From: Squalus acanthias
Taxonomy: Eukaryota
Assembly (NCBI GenBank): GCA_030390025.1
Contig: JASTWF010000033.1
Coordinates: 2,358,001-2,422,000 of the forward strand
DNA length: 64,000 nt
Direction: 5' to 3'
Shown: positions 35,410 to 48,019 of the stretch, piece after piece
Layout of the letters: each line of letters starts with the position of its first letter
Position numbering within the stretch: the first letter of the stretch is position 1
Position numbers and translations under genes: made by a program
The notes under the pieces: generated by a model
The model's input: only the letters and a program-made list of their open reading frames with translations
Databases searched by the model: none
Told to the model about the DNA's origin: nothing

Positions 35410-36287
35410 TCTCCCTCTCTCGAACCTCCAATGCTGAGCATGGGCTCGCTCTCAAAAGAGCGTTCGACCAGCCCAACTTCTGTTCGGCTCTCCCCTCCAC
35501 CGTCTGTGGGCAAGCCCTTGGAGTTTCACTTTTTATTCTCCTTTTAGGGTTGGGCCTGAGGCCAAGTTATTGACAAGACCAGTTTACCTGTAGAGGTTCC
35601 TCTAAAACTTCATCAACCAATGGCAGCTCAAGTTCTTTTTCTTGGATCTTGGATGAACGCCTTCCCCAAAAGAGGGTCTCATCACTTCATCCAATTTATC
35701 TTTCTTGTTTTTACATTTAAAGGTTCCTCCTTTGGAATCCATCTTATCTCCTTTGAAAATATCCTCCTTAACCCAGCAAGTATAAGCCCCGGCCCTGTCC
35801 CTCTTAATCATGGCCCCAGCCAGAGCTGTTGCACATTAGCCAGTCGCTATCTCACCTTCATCTCGCAAATGGCCCATTCTAAGATGGATACCTTAGCCTC
35901 CTCAAATGTCTTTCATTCTATGCCTATTCCTAATTCACTTTTAATTATCTTGAAAAGCAGTTCTGCTGAACAAATTCCAAATTCTATCTGTGGAGATTAT
36001 AATATGGTTATTAGTAACAATGCAAGAAACAGGTTGGGCCTTCACTGGCCAAATTAAAGATACATAATCAAAGTCAAAACCCTAACTTACAAACCACAGA
36101 TAACGTGCCTGACAACACCATCGTATGGGCCCCCGTGTGGAATGTTTATGTTTCCCCTACTCTGACTGATTAAAAAGACTGTCTCAAATTCTAATGCATG
36201 CTTTCCAGGAAAACGGAACTTATCATTTCAACACAGCATTATTCATGCAGCCATATTCATTTTTAGGCACCCCTAGTCTCGAAGACA
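34933..36287 (-). mobile_element. Truncated ERV-like element: 5' LTR (35177-36287), PBS and leader
   Basis: Minus strand TGTCTTC...TCTCTACA, then AAT, then TGGCGAGCC. AATAAAA TATA-like motif near 35531-35537 and ATTAAA at 35242-35247. No second LTR in the window, so the LTR outer end is inferred. Confidence 0.6.
35156..35173 (-). promoter_or_regulatory. Primer binding site, tRNA-Arg(ACG)-like
   Basis: TGGCGAGCCGAGTCAGGG versus the complement of the tRNA-Arg(ACG) 3' end, TGGCGAGCCAGCCAGGAG: 9 perfect pairs, one bulge, then pairing with one G:U. Confidence 0.65.
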
Positions 36288-38060
36288 TTGCACTGTTCTA
36301 TTGCATTGCAAATAACAATCATATTGCAAAGCGATATTCCATTGCATTGTGCTATTGCCTTGCAAATGACTATTACATTGAACGTTATATTCCATTGCAA
36401 TGTTCTATTGCAATACAAATATCTACGTTATTCCTAAGTTATATTCCATTGCAATGTGCTATTGCATTGTAAATGACTATTATAATGCAAAGTGATGTTC
36501 CATTGAAATGTGCTATTGCATTGCAAATGACGATTATATTGCAGTGATATTTCATTGCAATGATCTATTGCATTGCAAATGACTATTATATGGCAAAGTG
36601 ATATTCCATTGCAATGTTCTGTTGCATTGCAAAAGACTATTATATTGCAAAGTGATATTCCATTGCAATATGCTATTGCATTGCAAATGACGAATATATT
36701 GCTAAGTGATATTCCATAGCAATATTGTATTACATTACAAATGTCTACTGTACTGTTAAGTGATATTCTATTGCGATATTTTATTGCATTGCAAATGACT
36801 ATTATACTGCAAAGCGATATTCCATTGCAATGTGCTATTGCACTGCAGATAATGATTATATTTTAAAGCGATATTACATTACAATTTGCCATTGCATTGC
36901 AAATAGACTATTATATTGCAAAGTTATATTCCATTGAACTGTTCCATTGCATTGCCAATGACATTTATATTGCAAAGTGAAATTCCATTGCATTGTTACA
37001 ATGCTTTGCAAATTACGATTATATTGGAAATCGACATAATGACTATTATATTACAAAGTGATATTCCATTGCAATGTGCTATTGCATTGTAAATGACTAT
37101 TATAATGCAAAGTGATGTTCCATTGAAATGTGCTATTGCATTGCAAATGACGATTATATTGCAGTGATATTTCATTGCAATGATCTATTGCATTGCAAAT
37201 GACTATTATATGGCAAAGTGATATTCCATTGCAATGTTCTGTTGCATTGCAAAAGACTATTATATTGCAAAGTGATATTCCATTGCAATATGCTATTGCA
37301 TTGCAAATGACGAATATATTGCTAAGTGATATTCCATAGCAATATTGTATTACATTACAAATGTCTACTGTACTGTTAAGTGATATTCTATTGCGATATT
37401 TTATTGCATTGCAAATGACTATTATACTGCAAAGCGATATTCCATTGCAATGTGCTATTGCACTGCAGATAATGATTATATTTTAAAGCGATATTACATT
37501 ACAATTTGCCATTGCATTGCAAATAGACTATTATATTGCAAAGTTATATTCCATTGAACTGTTCCATTGCATTGCCAATGACATTTATATTGCAAAGTGA
37601 AATTCCATTGCATTGTTACAATGCTTTGCAAATTACGATTATATTGGAAATCGACATAATGACTATTATATTACAAAGTGATATTCCATTGCAATGTGCT
37701 ATTGCAATGCAAATTCATATTATTTGGCAAAGCGACATTGCATTACAATGTGCTGTTGCATTGCAAATGACAATTATATTTTAAATTGATATTCCATTGC
37801 AATAAGCAATTGCATTGCCAATTACGATTTTAGTTGAAAGCGATATTCCATTACAATGAGAAATTGCGTTGCAGATTACTATTATGTTCCAAATTTATAT
37901 TCCATGGCAATTTGCTATTGCATTGCAAATGAGTATTATATTGCAAAGTGATATTCCTTTGCAATGTACGATTGCATTGTTATGTGCCATTGCATGTCAA
38001 ATGACGAATTTATTTAAAAGTGATATTCCATTGCAATATTCTGTTGCATTGTAAATAACT
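36288..38060. repeat. 54-bp AT-rich satellite, block 1
   Basis: Consensus attatattgcaaagtgat-attccattgcaatgtgct-attgcattgcaaatgact. Confidence 0.95.
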
Positions 38061-40335
38061 AACATAGAAACATAGAAAATAAGAGCAGGAGTAGGCCATT
38101 CGGCTCCTCGAGCTGGCTCCGCCATTTAATTAGGTCATGGCTGATCATCCATATTCAGTACCCTGTCCCTGATTTCTCCATATATCCCTTGATCTCTTTA
38201 GCCTTAAGAAATATATCTAACTCCTTTTGAATATATTTAATGAATTGACCTCAACTGCCTTCTGTGGTAGAGAATTCCGCAGGTTCACCACTCTCTGGGT
38301 GAAGAAATTCATCCTCATCTCTGTGCTAAACGGCTTACCCCTTATCTTTAGACTGTGACCCCTGGTTCTGGACTCCCCCGCCATCAGGAACATCCTTTCT
38401 GCATCTAGTCTGTCTAGTCCTGTTAGAATTTTATATGTTTCAATGAATTCGCCTCTCATTCTTCTAAATTACATCGAATATAAGCCCAATGGATCCCATC
38501 TCTCCTCATACGTCATTCATGCCATCCCAGGTATCAGTCTGGTGTATCTTCGCTGCACTTCTTCCATTGCAAGAACATCCTTCCTCAGATAAGGCGACCA
38601 AAAGTACACATTATACTCAAGGTGTGGTCTCACCCACGCCCTCTACATCTGTAGCAACTCATCCTTGCTCCTGTACTCGAATCCTCTCGCTATGAAGGCC
38701 AAAATACCATTTGCCTTCTTAAACTCCTACCGCACCAACATGCTTACCTTCAGCGACTGGTGCACGAGGACACCCAGGTCTCGTTGCACTTCTCCTTCTC
38801 CCAATCTATTGCCGTTCAGATAATAACATGCCTTCCTGCTTTTGCCACCAAAGTGGATAACCTCGCATTTATCCACGTTATATTGCATCTGCCATGTATC
38901 TTCCCAATCACCCAACCTGTCCAAAACATATTGGAGTTTCTCGGCATCCTCCTCACAGCACACACGCCCACCCAGCTTTGTTTCGTCTGCAAACTTGCAA
39001 ATATTACATCTAGTTCCCTCATCTAGTTCATTAATATATATTGTGAATAGCTGGGGTTCTAGGACCGATGCCTGCGGTACCCAGTATTCACTGCCTGCCA
39101 CTCGGAAAAAGACCCGTTTATTCCAACTCTTTGCTTCCTGTCTGCCAACCAGTTCTCTATCCAAGTCAGGACCTTACACCCAATCACATGGGCTTTAACT
39201 TTACAGGCTAATCTCTGATGCGGGACCTTATCGAAAGCCTTTTGAAAGTCCAAATACACCACATCCATGGTTCTCCCTTATCTATTCTACGAGTTACATC
39301 CTCAAAAAATTCCATTGGTTAGTCAAGCACGATTTAGCTTTTGTAAATCCATGTTGACTTTTTCTGAACCTGTCACTGTTTTTCAAGTGCTCTGCTATTA
39401 CATCTTTTATAATGGACTCTAACATTTTCCCCACTACCGATGTCAGGCTTACCGGTCTATAATTCTACGTTTTCTCTCGACCATCTTTATTAAATAGTGG
39501 GGTTACATTAGCTACCCACGAATCCATGGGAACTGTTCCAGAGTCTAAATAATTTGGGAAGATGACCAGCATTGCATCTACTATTTCTAGGGCCACTTCC
39601 TTAAGTACCTTAGGATGTAGATTATCAGGCCCTGGGGATTTATCGGCCTTTAATCCCGTCAATTTCCCTTAACACCATTTCCCTACAATTACTGATTTCA
39701 TTCAGTTCCTCGCTCTCATTCGACCCTATGTTCCACGACATCTCTGGGAGGTTATTGGTGTCGTCCTTTTTGAAGACAGAACCAAAGTATGTATTTAATT
39801 GGTCAGCCATTTCTTTGTTCCCCATTATAAATTCCACTGATTCTGACTGCAAGAGACCTACGCTTGACTTCACAAATCTTTTTATCTTCACATATCTATA
39901 GAAGCTTTTACAGTCAGATTTTATGTTCCCTGAAAGCTTACTCTCATACTCTATTTTCCTCCTCTTATTTAATCTTTTGGTCCTCCTTTGCTGAATCCTA
40001 AACTGCTCAGGTTTGCTGGTTTTTCTGGCCAATGTATATGTCTTCTCATTTGATCTTATGCTATGCCTAATTTACCTTGTTAGCCATGTTTGCACCACAT
40101 TTTTTGTTTTAGTTTTATGCCAGACAGGGATGAACAAATTGTGTAGTTAATCCATGCGATCTTTAAATGATTGCCATTGCCGATTCACCATGAACCCTAT
40201 AAGTAACGTTCCCCAGTCCACCCTAGCCAACTCGCACCTCACACCATCGTAGTTACCTTTATTTAAATTCAGGACCCAAGTCTCTGAGTCAACTACTTCA
40301 CTCTCAATCTTAATGAAGAATTCTATCATATTATG

Positions 40336-43189
40336 TGTGGTAACACAATACAGCTTCCTGTGACTCGAACTTTATTGCATCACTTCCTGTGATTAGTCCA
40401 GGATAAATACTGGACTGATCAGTTGGATCCTGGAGAGGCATAGAGTAAGACCTCTTTTGTATGTAGCACCTTTTTAGTTGATTAAAGCTTACTTTAAGTT
40501 CACCACGCGTAAGGCTCATTCTTACGACAATTTAATCAACTTTGGAAAACTTCGCACTCAAACTTTTTGGACGAACTCGGAACTCAGGATCCAGGGAATC
40601 ACTCATCATGGAAAACATCCTTAAACCATCGCGTCTTGACTTGGACCCAAAAACCCCAGCAGCCGGTAAGTTGTGGAAACACTGGTACCGCACGTTTGAC
40701 AATTTTCTGGAATATTGCAAGGCTGATGATGACTCAAAGTTGCGGATACTCATCAACTGTGTCACCCCGAATGTATTTCAGTATGTGGAGGAATGGGACA
40801 GTTACGAGGAGGCAATTCGGACGCTTAAGAGACTATATACTAAGACACCGAATGAGGTCTATGCCAGACATCTACTAGCTACAGCCCAACAAGGGCCGGA
40901 GGAATCCATTGATAAATTCCTCCAAGAGCTTCGCAGACTTAGTATGGACTGTAACTTTCAGGCGGCCTCACCTGAGCTGTACCGTGAAGAAATGATCCGT
41001 GATGCTTTCATCTGCGGGCTTGCCTCCCCATTTATACGCCAGCGTCTACTGGAAAGTAAGACTCTTGAGCTTCAGAGAGCTTATGACATGGCTTGCTCTC
41101 TAGATCTGGCAAAAAGAAATGCAGACCTTTATACAGTGCCCAGACCTCGGTCTGCTGCCTTAACTACAGTCAGGCAATTTAAGAGGCCACAGGTGAACTC
41201 TATTAGGAAGGCCAGCACATTCCCACGAGACACAGCGGCTGTTGCAGCCTTTAACCTCCTGAAAAAACAGTTGGAGAAAGCGGCTCTTCACTCCATCGAT
41301 GAGAGTCTTCCTTTTGTTGTCGAGTGTGATGCCTCGGAGGTGGCGATCTCGGCCACTCTGAATCAGGAAGGTCGTCCGGTGGCATTTTTGTCCAGGACTT
41401 TAGAAGGGGCTGAGCTTCATTATCCTCCAGTCGAGAAAGAAGCTACAGCCATCATAGAGGCAGTACGGAAGTGGAGTCATCTCCTAGCTCGCCAGCACTT
41501 TACCTTAATCACGGACCAGCGATCGGTCGCCTTCATGCTCGATAATCGAAAACGGACCAAAATTAAAAATAATAAAATCCAGCTTTGGCGGCTGGAATTG
41601 GCCTCTTTTGGTTACACCATCCACTATCGACCTGGCAAGGAGAATGTGGCTCCGGATACCCTCACACGAGCATTCTGCTCCGCCATGGCACCCTCTACGC
41701 TCGTAGACATCCATGATGGGTTGTGTCATCCGGGCGTTACTCGCATGCTACACTTTGTGCGGTCCCGAAATCTCCCATTCTCTACCGGGGATGTAAAGAA
41801 GATGTGCTCGGACTGCAGAGTCTGTGCGGAATTGAAACCTCTGTTTTTCCGCCCTCGGGTGGTATACTCATACATGCGACCCAGCCAATGCAACGGCTTA
41901 GCATCGATTTTAAGGGGCCGTTGCCCTCTTCAACTCGCAACACTTATCTATTAACCATGGTCGATGAGTATTCCCGTTTTCCGTTTGCCTTTCCCTGCCC
42001 CAATATGCTGACGACCACGGTTATCAGCTGAATTGAGCAGGTATATGCTTTCTGTGGCATGTCATCCTATGTTCATTCGGATCGGGGCCCTTCTTTTATG
42101 TCAGGAGAACTCAAGGCCTATCTCTCGGAACGGGGTATTGCTGCCAGCAAAACGACGCCTTATCATCCGGTCGGGAATGGGCAAGTCGAGCGCTTTAACG
42201 CTATCATCTGGAATGCGGTACGTCTGGCTTTGAGATCTCGGGGCCTACCCAACCAGCAATGGGAAGCAGTACTTCCAGACGCATTACACTCCACACGGTC
42301 CCTCCTTTCGACCGCCCCAAATACGACGCTTCATTAACGGTTCTTCCGATTTCAGCGTCGCTCATCCTATGGGATATCTCTCCCGTCGTGGCTGACTGCA
42401 CCGGGACCAGTTCTACTCTGAAGATATGTCCGGGCGTCTAAGAATGATCCCCTGGTAGATGAGGTTGAGCTCACTGATGTCAACCCTACCTACGCCTATA
42501 TTCAGTATCCTGATGGTCGGGAATCTACCGTGTCATTGCGGGATCTGGCTCCCTGCCCGCTGAAACATAGGGGGACTCCAGGGGATGATATTGTACCAGG
42601 CACATCTCTGGGCTCGCCAGGTGCCTCTCATCACGATCTGGATCTGACGCCGGCTGGTACCTCACTCCAGCGTGCAGACCTGGGGCAGACTGAATATGAG
42701 CCCGTCGGGGCTCGCACGCGCAGCCACGATCCACCCTGTACCGTATGCTTGGAAACGGACCTGCCACAGCCCTGTCCGACACCCGTTCGGGCACCAGTAC
42801 ACAGTCAGGATCGTCCTGACCCCTCACAGAGCGGGCTGGATCACTCGGACTCTGGTCCACGGCCCGCGGCGGGTAAACAGGTTAGGGGCCCTCTACCGCT
42901 ACGAGAACTCAAACGGGTGCGGCTCTCCCTCGTCCAGCGGCTACGAAATGGAGGGAGCATCCCGGCCTCCTAATCTTTTGGGGGGGGGGGGAGAATGTGG
43001 TAACACAATACAGCTTCCTGTTACTCGAACTTTATTGCATCACTTCCTGTGATTAGTCCAGGATAAATACTGGACTGATCAGTTGGATCCTGGAGAGGCA
43101 TAGAGTAATACCTCTTTTGTATGTAGCACCTTTTTAGTTGATTAAAGCTTACTTTAAGTTCACCACGCGTAAGGCTCATTCTTACGACA
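40336..43189 (+). mobile_element. Gypsy-type LTR retrotransposon, internally deleted (no protease or RT)
   Basis: 194-bp LTRs (TG...CA) at 40336-40529 and 42996-43189 with 2 mismatches; PPT 42980-42995; TSD TTATG/TAATG; Gag, RNase H (CDASEVAISATLNQ, EKEA, TDQRS) and integrase (HDGLCHPG, CSDC..C, IDFKGP, VDEYSRF, HSDRGPSF, GNGQVER). Confidence 0.95.
40608..41954 (+). CDS. Gypsy Gag-RNase H-integrase zinc-finger fusion ORF (frameshifts out of integrase near 41860)
   Basis: Open from ATG 40608 (MENILKPSRLDLDP...WKHW); Gag runs directly into KASTFP...AFNLLK and RNase H. Confidence 0.75.
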   Translation: MENILKPSRLDLDPKTPAAGKLWKHWYRTFDNFLEYCKADDDSKLRILINCVTPNVFQYVEEWDSYEEAIRTLKRLYTKTPNEVYARHLLATAQQGPEESIDKFLQELRRLSMDCNFQAASPELYREEMIRDAFICGLASPFIRQRLLESKTLELQRAYDMACSLDLAKRNADLYTVPRPRSAALTTVRQFKRPQVNSIRKASTFPRDTAAVAAFNLLKKQLEKAALHSIDESLPFVVECDASEVAISATLNQEGRPVAFLSRTLEGAELHYPPVEKEATAIIEAVRKWSHLLARQHFTLITDQRSVAFMLDNRKRTKIKNNKIQLWRLELASFGYTIHYRPGKENVAPDTLTRAFCSAMAPSTLVDIHDGLCHPGVTRMLHFVRSRNLPFSTGDVKKMCSDCRVCAELKPLFFRPRVVYSYMRPSQCNGLASILRGRCPLQLATLIY

Positions 43190-43986
43190 TAATGATCGCT
43201 CCTCCCCAAGGGGCTTCGCACAATAAGATTGCTAATCAATCCTTTCTCATTACATAATACCCAGTCTAAGATGGCCCGATCTCGAGTTGTTTCCTCGACA
43301 TATTGGTCCAGCAAACCATCCCTTATACGCCCTAGGAATTCCTCCTCCACAGTAATGTTACTAATTTGGTTAGCCCAATCTGCATGTAGATTAAAGTCGC
43401 CCATGATAACTGCTTCCTGCTTATTGCACGCATCTTTAATTTCCTGTTTAATGTCATCCCCAACACCAGCATTACTGTTTGAGGATCTGTATACAACTCC
43501 CACGAACGTTTTCTGCACCTTGGTATTTCTCAGCTCTACCCATACAGATTCCACATCATCAGAGCTAATATCCTTCCTTATTATTGTGTTAATCTTCCTC
43601 TTTAACCGGCAATGCTACCCCACCTTCTTTTTCTTTTCGCCTATCCTTCCTGAATATTGAACACCCCTGGATGTTAAATTCCCGCCCTTGGTCACGCTGG
43701 AGCAATGTATCCGCAATCCCAATTATATCATATCCGTGTATATCTAATTGCGCAGCTTATTCATCCACCATATTACGAATTCTCCTCGTATTAACAAACA
43801 AAGCCTTCAGGCTTGTTTTTTTAAAACTCGGAGTCCTTTTAGAATTATTATTTACTGTGGCCCTGTTTGATTTACACACTTCATTTCTTTGCCTTCCACT
43901 TCTGCTTTTCGCCTTCCCGTCTTTTGCTTATATCCTTGCTTCCCTTTTCTCCGTCTCCCTGCGCAGGTTCCCAACCACCTGCCATT

Positions 43987-45346: not shown

Positions 45347-48001
45347 ATTTGCAATATAACTATTATATTGCAAAGTGTTAGTCCAGTGTAATTTTCGATT
45401 GCATTGCAAATGATAATTATATTGGTGTGATATTCCATTGCAATGTTCTGTTGCATTGCAAATGACTATTATATAGCAACGTGATATTCGATTGCAATGT
45501 TCTATTGCATTGCAAATGATGATTATATTCCAAATTGATATTCCATTGCAATATGCTATTGCACTGCCAATTATGATTTCATTTTAAAGCGATATTCAAT
45601 TACAATGTGATATTGCATTGCAACTGACTATTATGTTGCACATTTATATTCCGTTGCAATTTGCTATTGCATTGCAAAATAACTATTATAATGCAAAGTG
45701 ATATTCCATTGCATTGTTATGTTGCATTGCAAATGACGATTATATTGCAAAGCGACATTTCATTCCAATGTGCTATTGCATTATAAATAACTACTATGCT
45801 GTTAAGTGATATTACATTGTAATTTTCTAATGCATTGCAAATGACTATTACTTTGCAAACTAAAATTCCATTGCAAAGTGCTATTGCAATGCAAATGCCT
45901 ATTCTATTGCATAGTGACATATCATTACAATGTGCTATTGCATTTCAACAGACAATTATATTGCAAAGTGATATTCCATTGCAAAGTGCTATTGCATTGC
46001 AAATGACAGTTTATTGCCAAGTTACATTGTTCTATTGCCTTGGAAATGACTATTAGACTGTAAAGTGATATTGCATTGCAATGTCCTATTGCCTTGGAAT
46101 TGACTTTAATATTACAAAGTTATATTCCATTGCAATGTGCTATTTCATTGCAAATGACTATTACATTGAAAAGTGATATCACATTGCAATGTACTATTGC
46201 ATTGAAAATGACTATTATATTGCAAAGCGAAATTGCATTACAACGTGCTATTGCTTTGCAAATAACGATTTTATTTGAAAGTAATATTCCATTGCAATGT
46301 CTATTGCATTGCAAATGACGATCATATTGCAAAAGCGATATTCCATTGCAATGTGCTATTGCATTGCAAATGACTATTGTATTGCAAAGTAAAAGCCATT
46401 GCAAAGTTTGTTTGCATTGCAAGTGACAATTATATTGCCAAGTGCTATTCCAGTGCAAAGTGTTATAGCATTGCAAATGACTATTATATTGCAAAGTAAT
46501 ATTCCATTGCAATGTTCCATCGCATTGCAAATGATGATTATATTGCAAAGCGACATTCCATTGCAATGTGCTATTACATTGCAAATGACGATCATATTGC
46601 AAAGCGATAGTCCATTGCAATGTGCTATTATATTGCAAATGACTATTATATTGCAAAGTAATAAGCCATTGCAATGTTTTATTGCATTGCAAGTGACAAT
46701 TATATTGCAAGGTGATATCGGATTGCATTTTTCTATTGCATTGCCAATGACTATTATATTGCAAAGTGATATTCCATTGCAATGTTCTATTGCCTTGGAA
46801 TTGACTATAATATTACAAAGTGATATTCCATTGCAATGTGTTATTTCATTGCAAATGACTATTATATTGCAAAGCGACATTTGATTAAAATGTGCTATTG
46901 CTGTGCAAATAACGATTTTATTGCAAAGTGATATTCCATTGCATGTGCCATTGCATTTTAAATGTCTATTGTATTGCAAAGTAATCTTCCATTGCAATGT
47001 TCTATCGCATTGCAAATGATGATTATATTGCAGAGCGATATTCCATTGCAATGTTATGTTGCATTGCAAATGACGGTTAGATTGCAAAACGATATTCCCT
47101 TGCAATATGCTATTACATTGCAAATGACAATTCTATTGCAAACTAATATTCCATTGCAATGTTCTATTGCATTGCAAATGACGATCGTTTTGCAAAGCGA
47201 TATTCATTTGCAATGGTTTATTGCATTGCAAATGAATTTCATTTTGTAAAGTAATATTCCACTGCAATGTGCTATTGCATTGCAAATGACGTTCACATTG
47301 CAAGGTGATATTCCATTGCAATGTGCTATTGCATTGTAAATGACTGTTATATTGCAAAGTAATTTCCATTAAAACATGATATTACATTGTAAATGTCTAT
47401 TATATTGCAAAGCAATATTCCATTGCAATGTTTTATGGAATTGCAAATAACTTTCATATTGCAAAGTGATATTCCATTGCAATGTTGGACTGCATTAGAA
47501 ATAACTACGATATTGTTCAGTGATTTTACATTGCAATGTGCTATTGCATTGCAAATAAGTATTATATTGCAATGTGGTATTTCATTGCAATGTTCTATTG
47601 CTTTGCAAATGACTATTATATTGCAAATTCAGAATTTATTGCAATGTGCCATTGCATTGCAAATAATTATTGTATTACAATGTTATATTAGGTTGCAATG
47701 TACTATCGCACTGCAAATAACTGTTACATTACAAAGTGATATTCCATTGTAATATGCAATTGCATTGCAAATGACTATTATATTGCAAAGTCAGATGCCA
47801 TTGCAAAGGGATATTTCACCGCAAAGCACTATTATATTGCAAAGTGATATTCCATTGCAATGTTCCATTGCATTGGAAATGACTTTTATATTGCAAAGTG
47901 CAATTCAATTGCAATGTTCTATTGCATTGCAAATGACGAATATATTGCAGTGATATTCAATTGTAATGTTCTATTGCATTGCTAATGACTGTTATATTGA
48001 A
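45347..48001. repeat. 54-bp satellite, block 2
   Basis: Same consensus and orientation as 36288-38060. Confidence 0.95.
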
Positions 48002-48019
48002 AGAAAATTTAAAGGGGCC

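Follow-up and report, generated by a model that had tools for sequence, protein, structure and literature searches.

How does a retrotransposon that carries no tRNA-type primer-binding site (PBS) begin reverse transcription? This question is raised by a Ty3/Gypsy element in the window, the 64,000-nucleotide stretch of Squalus acanthias DNA (contig JASTWF010000033.1) that was analysed here and whose numbering is used throughout. Self-primed reverse transcription was demonstrated experimentally in the fission-yeast element Tf1, and passages on priming in two papers take it as a mark of Tf1/sushi chromoviruses (PMC10085805, PMC6317226). The original prediction for this locus proposed that the PBS is replaced by an 11-nt complement of the element's own long terminal repeat (LTR), that the element would prime itself from an RNA starting at 40476, and that it belongs to a non-chromovirus lineage. 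It named compensatory changes between the two 11-mers and a screen for matching host tRNAs as ways of checking these ideas.

The insertion shows the hallmarks of Ty3/Gypsy elements, with TG..CA LTRs, a target-site duplication (TSD), a polypurine tract (PPT) and the order protease-reverse transcriptase (RT)-RNase H-integrase (Table 1). In sister copies, Pfam domains run Gag-protease-RT-RNase H-integrase with no chromodomain, and the closest solved structure is the Ty3 Gag-Pol/RT; the ESM Atlas yielded nothing beyond generic Gag clusters. The two LTRs differ by 2 mismatches over 194 nt, and the TSD of the window copy is 5 bp long (TTATG/TAATG, one mismatch). The window copy itself is dead, having lost about 1.59 kb in a private deletion (about 41207-41211) that took away the Gag end, protease and RT; its integrase frame is broken as well. 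At the deletion point, the sequence departs from the window copy in 29 of 29 other copies. Five sister copies measure 3.2-4.4 kb and have 5-bp TSDs. The Gag start LKPSRLDLDP..WKHW is present as predicted. The family is young, and its exact LTR-PBS junction occurs at least 719 times in the genome.

The element interrupts a minus-strand LINE-like frame, which we take to be of the CR1 type. The LINE is flanked by a 54-nt satellite of 18-nt near-palindromic units (36286-37979 and 45349-48003). The window also holds a minus-strand tandem array of 20 tRNA genes (846-34707, about 1780-nt spacing), 19 of which are Lys(TTT) and the last of which is degenerate and read as Thr(TGT); similar arrays occur on other contigs.

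Table 1. Features of the Ty3/Gypsy copy in the window.
Feature	Position	Strand	Basis or remark
Ty3/Gypsy element, whole copy	40336-43189		
Left TSD, TTATG	40331-40335	+	4/5 bases same as right TSD
5' LTR, 194 nt, TG...CA	40336-40529	+	
Putative TATA-like box GATAAATA, -74 nt from 11-mer	40402-40409	+	
Predicted self-primer AGTTGATTAAA, hexamer ATTAAA inside	40476-40486	+	complementarity, covariation
Predicted cut in self-primer	between 40485 and 40486		rearrangement junctions
Short hairpin GCTTA/TAAGT, abutting primer 3' side	40487-40499	+	first-base-anchored helix enriched clade-wide
Predicted U5-end hairpin	40508-40526	+	at chance across families (97 vs 93, P=0.24)
Spacer (1 base, A at 40530) and putative PBS TTTAATCAACT	40530-40541	+	in 30/30 copies
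Gag N-terminus, in frame with RNase H and integrase zinc finger via private deletion	40608-41954	+	
Integrase core and tail, broken, without chromodomain	41717-42973	+	frameshift near 41870, stop 42029-42031, more breaks
PPT, ends AGAA, abuts 3' LTR	42980-42995	+	
3' LTR, 194 nt, second 11-mer copy at 43136-43146	42996-43189	+	
Right TSD, TAATG	43190-43194	+	

The first 8 nt past the 5' LTR contain no TGG, in agreement with the original prediction, and TTTAATCAACT (40531-40541) matches the reverse complement of AGTTGATTAAA (40476-40486) at every base. When the LTR was shuffled 20,000 times with dinucleotides preserved, a helix of at least 11 bp starting at +1 to +4 arose only 8 times. The TTAGTT context and the ATTAAA described for the LTR site are likewise both there. 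A 70-nt RNA folded from 40476 gives the helix (z=-3.1), with z values of -0.8 to -2.1 for longer windows, and both 11-mer sites are kept in all 30 best-matching copies. A sibling LTR in related organisms differs from window positions 40378-40531 by about 12 changes, none of them in the 11-mer, and has one insertion immediately before it.

Homologues were found in sea anemone, soft coral, crustaceans, arachnids, nematodes, a tunicate, a rotifer, an insect and a catshark; no relatives were found in viral contigs. We examined 145 loci, 80 from metagenomes and 65 from the Squalus acanthias genome; a Gag start was present in 95 and a usable LTR boundary in 88, and a strict TG..CA/TSD filter retained 53. 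From these loci came 23 family representatives, good copies being picked where a family had several. TGG followed the LTR in none of 24 representatives. Pairing of the PBS with the representative's own LTR was 11/11 in 16 of the 23, 10/11 in five, 9/11 in one and 6/11 in one, the last being a case in which the rule chose a wrong LTR boundary and the alternative boundary gives 11/11. By comparison, eight other Gypsy elements of the host genome have TGG sites, and their own-LTR pairing is 6-8 of 11. Compensatory changes between the two 11-mers, the first of the proposed checks, were indeed detected: 16 distinct PBS sequences formed 166 cognate pairs, as opposed to 127 with permuted LTRs, a value reached in 0 of 200,000 permutations. 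At each of primer positions 4-6, all of A-T, T-A, G-C and C-G occur. The register is fixed, with the PBS at +2, one base after ...CA, and the LTR site, 20-67 nt from the LTR end, mostly ends in TAAA; in most families the helix starts with AG. The oldest of the three families in the Squalus acanthias genome retains a helix of at least 11 bp in 39 of 50 copies. At one locus (L058:170-260), a second PBS 11-mer lies 56 nt downstream, directly before Gag. Other Gypsy elements neighbour some of the loci of this clade (L090:10254-11942, L047:418-2082 and L114:2272-2661); those of L090 and L047 have integrase upstream of RT, an order that is presumably Gmr1-like. These data indicate that the self-priming signature is real across the clade.

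The same survey bears on two other explanations of the site. A host tRNA fragment or another small RNA might match it by chance, and the 11-mer is in fact identical in the three host-genome families and in some distant ones; half-tRNA priming is also known in copia lineages, as described in part of one study (PMC6317226). Nevertheless, at least 16 different site sequences are each matched by their own LTR, and no Rfam family covers the site. The tRNA screen, in which the 11-mer was sought before a B box, gave six pattern matches, none of them in a tRNA gene; the sample of host tRNAs that was obtained is mostly Lys and Cys. We regard priming by such a host RNA as very improbable.

Alternatively, the helix might be only a switch that occludes the poly(A) signal against cleavage in the 5' LTR, with some other primer being used. 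AATAAA or ATTAAA lies inside the paired site in 15 of 24 representatives, and the pairing partner is present only after the 5' LTR, as such a switch would need. However, a canonical hexamer is missing from nine of the 24 sites, two of which have an unpaired hexamer downstream; moreover, occlusion requires no register fixed at +2, supplies no primer site and leaves the breakpoints at the helix end, described below, unexplained. Occlusion as the sole role is thus improbable; it may be a second function of a self-priming helix.

Rearranged copies provide evidence of another kind. In six copies of family 1, the PBS is not followed by T: three continue as inverted U3, two have a substitution and one has a deletion. 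Each of the three families contains fold-back copies, arranged LTR-A-PBS-inverted U3 (3, 5 and 3 loci); a fold-back pattern search gave eight loci in family 2 and three in family 3, two of these three on one contig. Two fold-backs sit in insertions whose own LTRs do not contain the copied segment. Four loci (L344, L348, L351 and L364), at least three of them in family 2, follow the LTR as far as the 3' end of its 11-mer, continue with T and 18-26 nt of minus-strand U5, and then re-enter the LTR at the final A of the 11-mer. We infer that this structure is a copied primer-cDNA junction, which would form if strong-stop DNA ended at the last A, folded onto its own start and was copied through the attached primer.

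A pattern for foreign sequence fused to the base following the 11-mer was used to collect breakpoints. Family 1 gave seven matches, six of which are rearranged junctions in four insertions, and family 2 gave ten, namely six rearranged junctions (two seen before), three two-base deletions and one double substitution. Four further insertions have LTR nt 22-151 missing from both LTRs, at least three of them descending from one parent. At three control positions, all in family 1, nine matches consisted of seven 1-2-base changes and two plain deletions, with no inverted or distant partners. The last A of the 11-mer was kept in every rearranged junction, though the pattern permitted G or T, and in four junction types it was not supplied by the partner sequence; several junctions show AG or AGC microhomology. 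Because 9 of 10 insertions inspected are flanked by a 5-bp TSD with 4-5 matches, the errors likely arose before integration, and since the insertions with the LTR deletion have a common parent, the junctions are not all independent. Breakpoints at the helix end are the footprint expected if the primer is cut from the element's own RNA, and the evidence that they give for the cut is indirect.

These junctions also bear on the idea that the 11-mers are an inherited inverted repeat with no priming role and that template switching in the chromosome produced the rearranged copies. Inverted repeats are known to favour fold-back of DNA, and some of the breakpoint matches are solo LTRs. In contrast, compensatory changes extend across RT distances of about one change per site, TSDs flank the rearranged insertions, one deletion is common to both LTRs, and copied segments are missing from the insertion's own LTRs. 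We therefore give this explanation hardly any credence.

Several observations on deleted copies may be recorded here. Miniature or palindromic insertions of 290-410 bp (L330/L338, L333, L345, L347 and L349) contain LTR, PBS and inverted U3 and nothing else, and 5-bp TSDs flank them. Another set of deleted copies (L336, L338, L342 and L356-L359) forms a lineage in which the PPT-LTR start is duplicated close to the 3' end; two different LTR deletions occur in it, both of which end at LTR nt 151/152 and remove the primer site. Some copies whose primer site is deleted retain a normal PBS, so that they may have been primed in trans. Locus L355, the one copy with a junction at the 5' side of the 11-mer, was rejected as a post-insertion event, its deletion being in the 3' LTR alone. 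A poly(A)-tailed retrocopy was looked for, and none was found.

On balance, we favour the reading, which we hold to be reasonably probable, that 40476-40486 is a self-primer released by cleavage from the 5' terminus of the RNA of the element. The RNA would start at 40476 or a few nt upstream of it and fold so that 40476-40486 pairs with 40531-40541, and the RNase H of RT would cut near the helix end, probably between 40485 and 40486. This would leave a 10-nt primer with its 3' end two bases from the LTR edge, just as two bases (AA) form the spacer at the PPT end, and the primer on strong-stop DNA is predicted as AGUUGAUUA(A). Minus-strand strong-stop DNA would then copy U5 and R back to 40486 and jump to the 3' LTR, and copying of the attached primer into the plus strand would keep the PBS and the LTR site complementary while families diverge. 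The pairing would also hide ATTAAA or AATAAA in the 5' LTR where present. The simplest reading of the junctions is that the RNA 5' end lay at 40486 upon completion of strong-stop DNA, hence that the cut fell after base 10 and the primer length is probably 10 nt; the kept A could also be a non-templated base following an 11/12 cut. The junctions thus yield a base-exact prediction, an RNA 5' end at 40486 once the cut has been made.

The position of the transcription start is the part of the original prediction that fared less well. Covariation, the lack of a matching tRNA gene, the tree position and the error products speak for self-priming; putative TATA-like boxes, at -74 in family 1 and at -90 and -92 (TATAAAT) in two sister families, argue against a start at 40476, and no TATA conserved at -30 of the 11-mer was found across families. 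Moreover, in many families the helix runs 13-19 bp and extends upstream of the 11-mer, which is simpler if the RNA includes these bases, and fold-backs L346 and L352-L354 continue past the PPT into internal sequence, which means that the 3' LTR copy was copied. A second version of self-priming by the same LTR site would accommodate these features: the primer would be the 3' end of a longer RNA, starting about 30 nt past the TATA-like box (about 40432), or the 11-mer of the 3' LTR would pair with the PBS and be cut there. Fold-back L328, whose exit from the LTR (nt 96-97) lies about 30 nt past the TATA-like box, would also fit; that end shows microhomology as well, however, and none of eight fold-back-pattern matches in family 2 ends at TATA+30. 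A long retained primer, once copied, would be expected to block second strand transfer, yet fold-backs number 3 as opposed to 719 normal junctions. Furthermore, the AG with which most helices start is what a start site might show, and the box is missing in 5 of 5 invertebrate-type LTRs checked. Alternative start sites decide primer inclusion in Tf2, according to part of one report (PMC5341516). The longer-RNA version is possible, if rather unlikely. The error products fit both versions, and taking the two together, we are highly confident that the LTR site primes the element itself.

Adjacent to the primer, a helix with its first five bases fixed forms 86 pairs across the clade, as opposed to 61 after shuffling (0/2000), a statistic chosen after a first version was non-significant (93 vs 86).

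The original prediction also placed the element outside the chromoviruses. Neither a chromodomain nor a Tf2-type SH3 was found at Pfam E<=0.01 in eight proteins (a full-length sister copy and seven homologues), which bears out the stated lack of a chromodomain; in chromovirus controls, the domain was found in 3 of 3. Neither domain appears in the precomputed domains of the 48 and 120 homologues listed. In host-genome profile searches, DUF4939 and Ty3_capsid gave no matches and Chromo gave 16. Matches to SH3_Tf2-1 in the host genome were rejected as chromovirus references, those inspected being env-bearing retroviral stretches. Seven loci (L180, L185, L187-L189, L193 and L194) picked out by the Tf2-type SH3 profile are retroviral-type stretches with pol and a downstream env-like frame, and several of these stretches have long open frames.

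An RT-RNase H tree was built under LG+C20 from 391 columns and 48 of 82 rows, with L107 and L110 dropped as too short. Its 10 chromovirus-side rows are viral contigs with verified chromodomains and their homologues, with no true Tf1, Tf2, sushi or Cigr-1 among them; five vertebrate proteins first called 'chromoV' were treated as unlabelled, as none of the four scanned had a chromodomain. The 15 rows of the clade cluster together (100/100) on a long branch that lies apart from the 10 chromovirus-side rows and adjoins host-genome elements that we take to be Mag-like (support 93/73, not starred). The approximately unbiased (AU) test rejected a union of the clade with the three fungal-type chromovirus rows (p=0.027) and did not reject one with all 10 chromovirus-side rows (p=0.17). 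The predicted non-chromovirus placement is accordingly upheld against the fungal chromoviruses by tree position and this rejection. Since a sister relationship to all chromoviruses was not rejected, an origin of self-priming independent of Tf1 is likely but unproven.

If self-priming is confirmed, a clade with no chromodomain, ranging from cnidarians to sharks, would indicate either repeated origins of tRNA-free priming or a greater age for it than has been assumed. Tools that find the PBS through tRNAs would miss this class of elements, and 3' tRNA fragments would presumably be unable to silence it. The full scenario is that a widespread animal Gypsy clade evolved tRNA-free priming apart from Tf1, with a 10-nt primer overlapping the element's poly(A) signal, an RNA fold unlike that of Tf1 and a cut by which the standard two-base end is regained, the position of the cut being legible in replication errors that a vertebrate genome has preserved; we put its chances at about even. 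We found no paper on self-priming in this clade in the accessible literature, subscription papers, Repbase and GyDB being largely beyond reach.

A candidate relative is the Cigr-1 clade (Ciona intestinalis) of the Mag lineage of Ty3/Gypsy, which would share with the present clade a single ORF of about 1200-1300 aa, short LTRs and tunicate members. In a published table, Cigr-1 is filed under Mag (PMC6238403). Unlike the clade, the Mag-like elements of the host genome have TGG sites. Self-priming has already been proposed outside Tf1/sushi, in the plant TAR copia elements Houba and Osr-1, and was also predicted for moss Tcn1, on the strength of a complementary stretch of 10 nt or more beginning 0-5 nt past the LTR (PMC6317226). 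The TAR elements thus share this trait with the clade, but they belong to a different superfamily, Tcn1 is a chromovirus, and the hosts of both are plants.

Like Tf1 and Tf2 of Schizosaccharomyces pombe, Tj1 of S. japonicus and Tf1/sushi elements, the clade has no tRNA site, and an LTR site of about 11 nt is complementary to a PBS adjoining the 5' LTR. In Tf1, the primer is the first 11 bases, and RNase H cuts between bases 11 and 12, as given in part of one paper (PMC7175516). In the clade, the cut predicted from the junctions would likewise fall at the end of the LTR site, probably one base earlier, after base 10 rather than 11. The Tf1 RNA is described as a pretzel of three duplexes (PMC10085805, in part), whereas in 21 representatives of the clade the two flanking duplexes are at chance (113 vs 114; 97 vs 93), and a hairpin after the primer takes the place of the pretzel; the site also often bears a poly(A) hexamer, in contrast to Tf1. 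Chromoviruses are reported absent from cnidarians, arthropods, nematodes and tunicates (PMC2774666, in part), all of which host the clade. Given its tree position and the absent pretzel, the clade, which has no chromodomain and is not sister to the fungal chromoviruses, would resemble Tf1 in its working without being placed in Tf1/sushi.
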